Shown: piece after piece, positions 9,105 through 9,294 of the stretch
Layout of the letters: every line of letters begins with the position of its first letter
Position numbering within the stretch: position 1 is the stretch's first letter
DNA from: a virus
Length of the DNA stretch: 11,560 bases
UHGV virus genome: UHGV-0176440
Strand: one strand, 5' to 3'
Notes under the pieces: model-generated
Told to the model about the DNA's origin: nothing
Database searches by the model: none
What the model saw: the letters and a program-made list of their open reading frames with translations, nothing else
Made by a program: the position numbers and the translations under genes

Positions 9105-9294
9105 ACAGTAATTTCTAAAAGTTCTTATTTTTCAATAAGTTGTAATTAGCCATATATAGAGAACTGACAAGTCTCTTCACAGTTAACTCTGTAACCTTAA
9201 CAGTAATTTCTAAAAATGCTTATTTTTCAATAAGTTGTAATCACCCAATATAATAGCTGTTCAGCACCTTCACAGATAACTTCAAAGGTCTTCT
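9105..9294 (+). repeat. Two tandem roughly 95-bp units, each starting with a 43-bp near-identical iteron-like repeat
   Basis: 9105-9147 and 9200-9242 (ACAGTAATTTCTAAAA..TTATTTTTCAATAAGTTGTAAT) differ at 2 positions. Each contains the 6-bp inverted repeat CTTATT-tttc-AATAAG. The unit remainders are degenerate copies (CTTCACAGTTAACT vs CTTCACAGATAACT). A degenerate third core copy is at about 11306-11327. Confidence 0.85.

Follow-up and report, generated by a model that had tools for sequence, protein, structure and literature searches.

A tandem repeat of two 95-bp units lies in the gene-free control region of an island found in Escherichia coli and its relatives, and its sequence suggests that the unit is probably a DNA-level protein-docking cassette and not a plasmid-type iteron array. 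Our best reading, which we put forward tentatively and with somewhat less than even confidence, is that of a factor-gated promoter or operator cassette built around a DNA bend. Taken alone, a conserved cassette of this kind, whether for protein binding or as a promoter, is nothing unusual, and the repeat owes its interest mainly to the carrier island. The window, that is, the whole stretch of DNA analysed, is the UHGV virus genome UHGV-0176440 with a length of 11,560 nt.

In the natural register, the units occupy positions 9099-9193 and 9194-9288. A repeat search revealed a direct-repeat pair at 9105-9152 and 9200-9247 (48 nt, 92% identity, 95 bp from start to start), and self-BLAST extended the homology to 9105-9188 versus 9200-9281 (84 nt, 82%, E = 2e-16), confirming that the two units also match, in degenerate form, over the rest of their length, as the original prediction had proposed. 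It had also described two 43-bp copies, 95 bp apart, with two mismatches; the place and the spacing are correct, but the 43-mers at 9105-9147 and 9200-9242 differ at three positions, and the count of two holds for their first 42 nt only. The small palindrome that it placed in each copy, CTTATT-TTTC-AATAAG, is present at 9124-9139 in unit 1 and at 9219-9234 in unit 2 (on the minus strand the core reads CTTATT-GAAAA-ATAAG). TRF did not report a 95-bp period (fewer than two copies at 82%). The repeat is far above chance expectation, and the duplication is not private to the window. A CRISPR array, which had already been discounted, is rejected here as well: there are only 1-3 copies, the supposed spacers are homologous to each other and cas genes are absent.

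Which element carries the repeat? Bases 1-121 of the window are the 5' part of wrbA, so that almost every E. coli genome matches its left end, and an island of ~11.4 kb is integrated in this gene. Its main features are as follows.

173-1816: large serine recombinase gene
leftward block: genes for a Dit-like tail protein, a 722-aa tape-measure protein, 67-aa and 236-aa proteins and five small proteins
8510-8640: divergent promoter region
8999-9022: terminator of the gene for a conserved 62-aa membrane peptide
8985 to 10555: gene-free stretch of ~1.5 kb, which holds the tandem repeat
10555-11130: small serine recombinase gene

The five small proteins of the leftward block include a small, conserved HNH nuclease as well as HTH and ribbon-helix-helix-like proteins, and a variable recombinase cassette has its boundaries at ~10361 and ~11190. 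Evidence of island excision was provided by the metagenome contig L045 (11,233 nt, with a 55-nt terminal overlap), which represents a circular form joining window positions ~98 and ~11508 at the shared sequence AAAGCAC. Other stand-alone contigs of ~11 kb were considered as packaged forms of the island, but they proved to be mostly chromosomal fragments, and only L045 was circular. The tape-measure protein shows 30% identity over its full length to the tape-measure proteins of Felix O1-like phages, and bases 2068-2586, in the next gene after it, share 92% nucleotide identity with phage tootiki. The tail genes of the island have been exchanged recently with the helper lineage. Capsid, terminase and replication genes were not recognisable on the island. 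It is this combination, Felix O1-type similarity in tail and non-coding sequences with no capsid, terminase or replication gene, that makes the island look like a satellite of virulent Felix O1-type phages, in agreement with the satellite setting originally suggested for the repeat. Such a satellite is apparently undescribed, and a search of the full-text literature on phage satellites did not find a description of the island. Of the complete E. coli genomes searched (5,426 in total), 549 matched part of the gene-free region and 414 the repeat region, which means that ~8-10% of them carry the island.

The next important question is whether the duplication is a local accident or an old feature of the family. 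The region was gathered from E. coli genomes, E. albertii, Citrobacter, and viral and metagenome contigs, yielding 79 distinct arrays, of which 46 contain two units, 32 contain one (including ~7 unrelated chance matches to the search pattern) and one, in contig L038, contains three; the spacing between units is 93-97 bp throughout. Copy number therefore does vary among related elements, from one to three units, whereas a recent local duplication absent from relatives, the outcome that would have spoken against the original prediction, was not what we found, since most relatives carry two differentiated units. The first and last units consistently differ in their 3' halves: the first almost always has GAGAACTGACAAGTCTCTTCACAGTTAACTCTGTA (type A), while the 3' half of the last belongs to one of types B, C and D, and this consistent difference indicates that the duplication is old and maintained. 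Where only one unit is present, the array looks as though an unequal exchange between the invariant halves had produced it. Matches to the region in E. coli were confined to chromosomal sites, in 414 carrier genomes, and all twelve loci inspected (L001, L002, L004-L011, L014 and L015) are the same island, which rules out a mobile repeat; the unit was also absent from the phage and plasmid collections searched.

Tandem duplications arise easily in AT-rich non-coding DNA, and a neutral recent duplication could be supposed on this ground, were it not for the presence of the repeat in most relatives, the differentiation of the first and last units and the conservation of the core above its flanks, with Citrobacter included. 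An element acting as a structured RNA or a small peptide finds as little agreement with the data. The fold z-scores against shuffles are close to zero on both strands (-0.07 on the + strand and -0.26 on the - strand), searches with Rfam (E up to 1) and ARAGORN gave no RNA or tRNA match in the window, and the units contain no ORF longer than 37 aa and none that is conserved, so a hidden small gene was rejected as well. We consider the neutral, RNA and peptide explanations, which are largely refuted by conservation, to be extremely improbable.

The unit parts to which this conservation applies, together with the upstream flank and a compact third copy close to the right end of the island, are given below; all are on the + strand.

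9061-9096, +: flank upstream of unit 1, CTTGACAG ... TATCAA, promoter-like, without T at -7
9099-9193, +: repeat unit 1, 95 bp, at the place where two-copy relatives nearly always have the type A 3' half
9102-9108, +: unit 1 'ACAG' box or -35-like hexamer, CTGACAG (CTGACA-18-TATTTT, 9/12, promoter scan)
9117-9142, +: unit 1 A-tract and IHF-type core, AAAA-N9-TTTCAATAAGTTG, including the dyad
9140-9158, +: unit 1 invariant TTGTAAT.A.CCA followed by TATA-like TATATA
9164-9182, +: unit 1 CTGACAAG and CTTCACAG boxes
9194-9288, +: repeat unit 2, 95 bp, type B with TATAAT in the window
9197-9203, +: unit 2 'ACAG' box or -35-like hexamer, TTAACAG (TTAACA-18-TATTTT, promoter scan)
9212-9237, +: unit 2 A-tract and IHF-type core, including the dyad; one mismatch to the consensus
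9226-9254, +: unit 2 second promoter-like register, TTCAAT-17-TATAAT (read from the sequence)
9268-9275, +: unit 2 CTTCACAG box
11295-11327, +: compact third copy, CTTCGCAG box, 12 nt and TTTCAATAAGTTA, ~190 bp inside attR

In a set of 111 distinct units, positions -21 to +29 relative to CTTATT are conserved at a level of at least 0.9, with the exception of five free positions. The resulting block of ~50 bp reads T.ACAGTAAyTTCTAAAA..kCTTATTTTTCAATnAGTTGTAAT.A.CCA and is followed downstream by a TATA-like element, a variable short dyad around CTGnnnAG (GAGA..TCTC or AAGG..CCTT) and the invariant CTTCACAG, which is retained in essentially all units, those of the most divergent relatives included. 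The 'ACAG' box of unit 1 is conserved at 0.9 or above (TTGACA in a Citrobacter relative), and conservation of the A-tract and IHF-type core is 0.9-1.0 except at the free position +13. This pattern does not favor the palindrome as the selected feature: base 4 of the right arm may be A, G, T or C, and the left arm shows no compensating change. The dyad is thus not kept as a dyad, and a symmetric operator is weakened for the same reason.

A stricter comparison is offered by a divergent group comprising E. coli K56-43-un, Citrobacter sp. ANG330 and several metagenome contigs, in which no alignment is possible over the 424 bp that separate the unit from the leftward operon. In this group, the unit core through CACAG is 86% identical, compared with ~74-75% in the aligned stretches immediately to the right (9304-9973), and only the short, promoter-proximal segment 10335-10391 exceeds the identity of the unit core, in one relative. 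The retained elements are a TTGAYA box, AAAA, CTTATT, TCAATnAGTTGTAAT, CCA, ATATAG, AACTRACAAG and CTTCACAG; two bases between CTTATT and TCAATnAGTTGTAAT are free, and so is the spacer-like 9-nt stretch between the TTGAYA box and the A-tract. The flank at 9061-9096, near-invariant and the best-conserved stretch of the gene-free region in the main group, is not kept in the divergent one.

What kind of site could be maintained in this way? The conserved features seem to fit an IHF-type site with flanking boxes rather than a dyad. The invariant part of the unit can be written as AAAA-N9-TTTCAAnnnnTTG, where the IHF consensus is WATCAANNNNTTR. The TTTCAATAAGTTG sequence of both units deviates from this consensus at one position, as does the third site near attR, and the mismatch of the main group is a T in place of A at position 2. 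In the divergent group, AATCAATGAGTTG, TATCAATTAGTTA and similar sequences are exact WATCAANNNNTTR matches, and CATCAATAAGTTG misses the W position only. High-affinity IHF sites with an upstream A-tract are known from lambda attP H' and cosB I1. In our units, this A-tract is the AAAA found 12-15 nt before TCAA; its conservation is 0.96-1.0, and it persists in the divergent group despite changed neighbours. The unit shares with lambda H' both TCAA-N4-TTG and the A-tract at this distance, and a manual alignment with the H' oligonucleotide gives 19 identities in 33 positions; the core resembles an IHF site of the lambda H' type. By itself, the consensus does not exceed chance expectation in the AT-rich window, where one-mismatch matches number 25 against 21 expected. 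Conservation of the unit is moreover stricter than IHF requires: only one of the four N positions of the consensus varies and three are conserved, which suggests that a reader more specific than IHF may bind the core.

The core is flanked by 'ACAG' boxes, with cTGACAG or TTAACAG upstream and CTGACAAG and CTTCACAG downstream, and two promoter-like registers can be recognised across it. In the first, the promoter scan found cTGACA or TTAACA-18-TATTTT in both units and again in a relative, with TTGACA-17-TATTAA as the Citrobacter version; the divergent group has TATTAA or TATTCA in place of TATTTT, without T at -7. The second register, TTCAAT-17-TATAAT, occurs in unit 2, its counterpart in unit 1 being TTCAAT-16-TATATA without T at -7, and TATAAT or a canonical TAnnnT is confined to type B units. 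In relation to the first register, the -35 hexamer marks the exact start of the conserved block; in relation to the second, the block covers -63 to -7. Both candidate sigma-70 registers are weak and neither is robust, and the existence of two alternatives in AT-rich DNA weakens both. The predicted terminators of the gene-free region are all on the + strand, which makes rightward transcription plausible. In relatives carrying a Dam methyltransferase cassette, a convergent gene has its 3' end 77 bp before the units, and no terminator intervenes; transcription from a rightward promoter at this place would yield antisense RNA.

If the cassette works as we propose, the DNA would be bent at the core by IHF of the host or by a protein of the island or helper that recognises a similar site, and the bend would bring the flanking boxes and their binding factor together. 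The boxes assembled in this way would set whether RNA polymerase fires rightward into the gene-free region. One, two or three tandem copies would result from unequal crossing-over between the invariant halves, and the compact third copy next to attR would face the integrase gene in the excised circle. We infer that IHF is the binder and that the cassette acts as a promoter, and we also infer in which direction it transcribes and which factor binds the boxes. Tandem promoters with overlapping sites, such as rrn P1/P2 and the phage Mu early promoters, offer a parallel: they share with the repeat the duplication of promoter-like cassettes ~100 bp apart, the position directly after a terminator and, across the -35/-10 region, a bend or dyad site; in the Mu early region an IHF site lies between operators. 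Unlike in these systems, the hexamers of the unit are weak and not robustly conserved, and in some relatives the units lie downstream of a convergent gene.

The original prediction had also noted a third degenerate core near the right end. It is real: the sequence at 11311-11326, TATATTTCAATAAGTT, matches at 15 of 16 positions, and the core together with its box is kept in all 45 distinct right-end blocks of relatives. The box reads CTTCACAG in relatives and lies 12 nt upstream of the core, and the divergent group has TATCAAnnnnTTA at this site, which matches the IHF consensus exactly. The -35/-10 spacing of the first register is not kept in this copy, which in the excised circle lies upstream of the integrase gene. 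These observations bear on the possibility that the core is an architectural or recombination-accessory site with no promoter role, at which one bending protein shapes the excised circle or the integrase synapse. A core and ACAG box are found ~190 bp from attR in every relative, and the cores at both locations change together between island groups (TTTCAA at both versus A/C-ATCAA and TATCAA), which agrees with such a role, although this co-variation represents a single event. The tandem units themselves lie 2.1 kb from attR, and large serine integrases are not known to require arm sites or IHF; we thus regard a purely architectural site as very unlikely. A site for a serine recombinase itself was rejected. 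Crossover and res sites of these enzymes consist of inverted 12-13-bp half-sites around a 2-bp centre and lie at the boundaries of the rearranged segment, but the arms here are only 6 bp long, the flanks are asymmetric and the cassette boundaries (~10361 and ~11190) are not at the cores.

The original prediction of an origin or regulator-binding array was partly supported: its observations were confirmed, and an array bound by a regulator or another protein is plausible, while an origin is disfavoured by the lack of an initiator and by the 95-bp spacing. As an origin, the units would be iteron-like sites, accompanied by IHF as in pSC101 and R6K (where an IHF site goes with the iterons), for an unrecognised island initiator, and helper infection would fire replication, as at the PLE ori or the ori and crr of P4. 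Several features of the region point in this direction. The repeat lies in 1.5 kb of gene-free DNA between oppositely oriented gene blocks, similar to the ori-bearing non-coding region of PLE, the Vibrio cholerae satellite of phage ICP1, and at 9527-9600, 230 bp to the right of the units, there is a conserved AT-rich segment similar to three AT-rich 13-mers at 6185-6223. The P4 crr region likewise consists of two direct repeats of ~120 bp, which carry the iterons of the alpha protein. [quoted passage not shown]

The evidence against an origin comes from both the proteins and the DNA. No Rep, primase or helicase family matches any island ORF (E up to 1); the 236-aa protein is a long coiled coil encoded where tape-measure chaperones sit, and the 185-aa protein belongs to an orphan family, its model having no meaningful structural neighbour. 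The RepA of PLE is likewise invisible to sequence searches (PMC7145576), so the absence of a Rep match is weak evidence against an origin. The number of DnaA boxes in the window is at chance level (31 versus 32 expected), and there are none in the units. Iteron origins usually contain at least three direct repeats of ~17-22 bp in helical register, whereas the relatives of the window carry 1-3 copies at 93-97 bp, about a third of them a single unit, and the same core recurs next to attR; neither such a number and register of repeats nor a cognate island Rep was found. An origin at the units is thus unproven and currently disfavoured, and we consider it unlikely.

The comparison with the two known satellites is instructive in both directions. 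PLE has a 2.7-kb non-coding region with four repeat families and an ori, its RepA initiator, which has a RepA_N fold, is proven, and its iterons bind RepA in EMSA (PMC7145576). Like PLE, the island is apparently a satellite of a virulent myovirus and has a large serine integrase at one end. The long gene-free region of each contains several repeat families, with repeats that are semi-palindromic around an A/T tract, and a helper-like non-coding segment lies nearby, of 89 bp and 71% identity in PLE and of 87 bp and 76-80% in the island. It differs from PLE in having no recognisable initiator, units 95 bp apart, a single copy that is enough in many relatives, and no sequence similarity. With P4 crr it shares a two-copy tandem repeat of ~100 bp in satellite non-coding DNA, with several short boxes per copy. 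In P4, the alpha primase-helicase binds these boxes and a separate ori carries the same ones; the island has no alpha-like protein, and the boxes of its units are not identical to each other. A broader alternative is that the units and the third core together form an island-specific cis site, either a replication origin or a packaging-specifier, read by an orphan island protein with IHF as a cofactor, which we regard as possible but rather doubtful.

Could the units serve packaging by the helper? Under this explanation, a small-terminase-like specifier of the island or the helper would bind the ACAG boxes and IHF would bend the DNA between them, as at a cosB-type site. Lambda cosB has the layout R3-I1-R2-R1, and each unit can be read from its sequence as box-IHF-box-box. 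Boxes of the CTTnACAG type occur at ~14 per kb in 9000-10000, mostly on the + strand, compared with 2.8 per kb in the whole tootiki genome, and no motif is repeated more often in the 1.6-kb gene-free region of tootiki than this 8-mer family, with 23 copies in one kb. Moreover, a satellite that lacks a terminase depends on recognition by the helper motor, and the island has a conserved small HNH endonuclease. PLE combines pac mimicry with specifiers of its own (10.1101/2024.04.22.590561). Against packaging, the boxes of the units mostly deviate from the TAACA(A/G) core of the phage, a TerS-like fold was not found among the island proteins examined, and Felix O1-like phages package with direct terminal repeats of ~580 bp (PMC8303462), the termini not being located in the phage records. 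The ends of the EcoM2 record are arbitrary (they split the ligase gene), and the CTTAACAG-rich region is internal in all records listed. The unit also has no counterpart in the 88-kb genome of the Felixounavirus tootiki, from which both unit and dyad are absent, and mimicry of the helper phage by the unit was rejected on this basis; mimicry of a late promoter was rejected as well, the upstream regions of the tootiki structural genes having no similar motif. A packaging site at the units is, in our estimation, decidedly unlikely.

The longest non-coding similarity to Felixounavirus is found not in the units but at 10065-10151 (87 nt, 76-80% identical to an intergenic module of Felixounaviruses), three other non-coding matches to tootiki being only 32-61 nt long. 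This segment belongs to a module at 9991-10181, ~900 bp from the units, which has a good promoter (TTGACA-17-TAAGAT) and a terminator, ~ten GGTNN pentamers whose N positions vary between relatives while the period is kept, and an invariant GGTATGGGTGGATTGTCGTAGCCACGTTAAAAATCGAC; its GTCG/CGAC stem is replaced in the phage by GGTAG/CTACC, a compensatory change. The phage carries two or three modules of this type, and some islands have an unrelated module in the same slot. In PLE, an 89-bp stretch with 71% identity is a pac mimic (10.1101/2024.04.22.590561), and by this analogy the 9991-10181 module might be a pac mimic, an sRNA or an R-loop origin. As the site of a helper-dependent cis function, this module is a better candidate than the 95-bp units, for which we retain the bend-centred promoter or operator cassette as the best reading.

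The unit is among the best-conserved non-coding features across the family, which makes it a prime handle on how the island is switched on, copied or packaged. If the island-specific cis site were true, the island would represent a PLE-like system in enterobacteria with its own tape-measure and baseplate-hub genes, that is, a new satellite family of E. coli and Citrobacter parasitising virulent Felix O1-type phages. Phages of this type serve in typing and biocontrol, which would give practical interest to an island able to sense or exploit them.

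The island of ~ 11.4 kb (window 92-11514) is integrative and occupies the 5' end of wrbA, where its att core is AAAGCAC; copies of it are also present at tonB-yciI and additional sites. It encodes a large serine integrase, and searches of its gene content for capsid, terminase and replication genes found none. A metagenome contig (L045), the termini of which overlap by 55 nt, is a circular form of the island.

Tail genes connect the island to the Felix O1-type (Felixounavirus) phages that we read as its helpers. A tape-measure protein with 30% amino acid identity to Felixounavirus tape-measure proteins is encoded by the island itself within 1813-4926 (- strand), where it adjoins a Dit-like tail gene in the same order as in the helper. 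The nucleotide identity between window 2068-2586 and positions 24545-25063 of phage tootiki, a Felixounavirus, reaches 92%, which indicates a recent exchange of tail DNA between the island and the helper lineage.

The similarity extends to noncoding DNA. Phage tootiki carries a 1.6-kb gene-free region (53449-55087; L013 8449-10087) that is ~ 90% conserved among Felixounaviruses and densely filled with CTTAACAG / CTAACAAG boxes (23 in one kb), spaced 10-12 bp apart in a single orientation; this region may be a terminus, an origin or a regulator array. Boxes of this 8-mer family are also enriched in the island's own gene-free region (8985-10555). In addition, 2-3 homologues of the island module at 9991-10181 were identified per Felixounavirus genome. 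The features of this module are as follows:

Promoter, TTGACA-17-TAAGAT
GGTNN pentamers, about 10, with the period kept and the N positions variable
Hairpin segment, invariant, whose stem differs from that of the phage by a compensatory change
Terminator

Candidate roles for the module are those of a pac mimic, an sRNA or an R-loop origin, and in two island relatives (L041 and L022) its slot is occupied by an unrelated module.

Both flanks of the 95-bp tandem units (9099-9193 and 9194-9288) were also compared among relatives. To the left, a hydrophobic peptide of ~ 60 aa (window 8808-8984, + strand; L015 6800-6620, - strand) follows the pattern GGxGLxAGxLxRYxLVRxxVVFxLFGRxW..DLKD, and its conservation at the protein level persists where DNA alignment is lost. 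A predicted strong extended -10 promoter at 8597-8626 would transcribe this gene. The 25-nt terminator hairpin 3' of it (8999-9022) has an exact reverse complement at 2559-2583 of L004, an E. coli island copy, in which the hairpin is flipped within otherwise collinear surroundings. To the right, a 12-13-bp CTTCTTAACCGAC-like tandem repeat at 9347-9376 (9349-9373 according to TRF) varies from 2 to 4 copies among relatives (alignment A2). The small serine recombinase gene is a swappable cassette (10362-11190) that differs in sequence between relatives and is inverted in some of them, and in other relatives a Dam methyltransferase cassette substitutes for 9342-9501 or is inserted near 9457-9502. 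Together, the two cassettes (loci L001, L004, L009, L010 and L097) suggest that the DNA right of the repeat serves as a cargo hotspot. A second gene-free region of the island (5986-6552) contains the following features:

6015-6036 / 6071-6092, inverted repeat of 22 nt
6102-6142, 41-nt copy (85%) of the island right-end sequence 11453-11493
6185-6223, three AT-rich 13-mers similar to 9527-9558

Among 5,426 complete E. coli genomes, matches to the island's gene-free region were present in 549 and matches to the repeat region in 414. No description of the island was found in the literature searched, and it appears to represent a new family of satellites that depend on virulent phages of the Felix O1 type.
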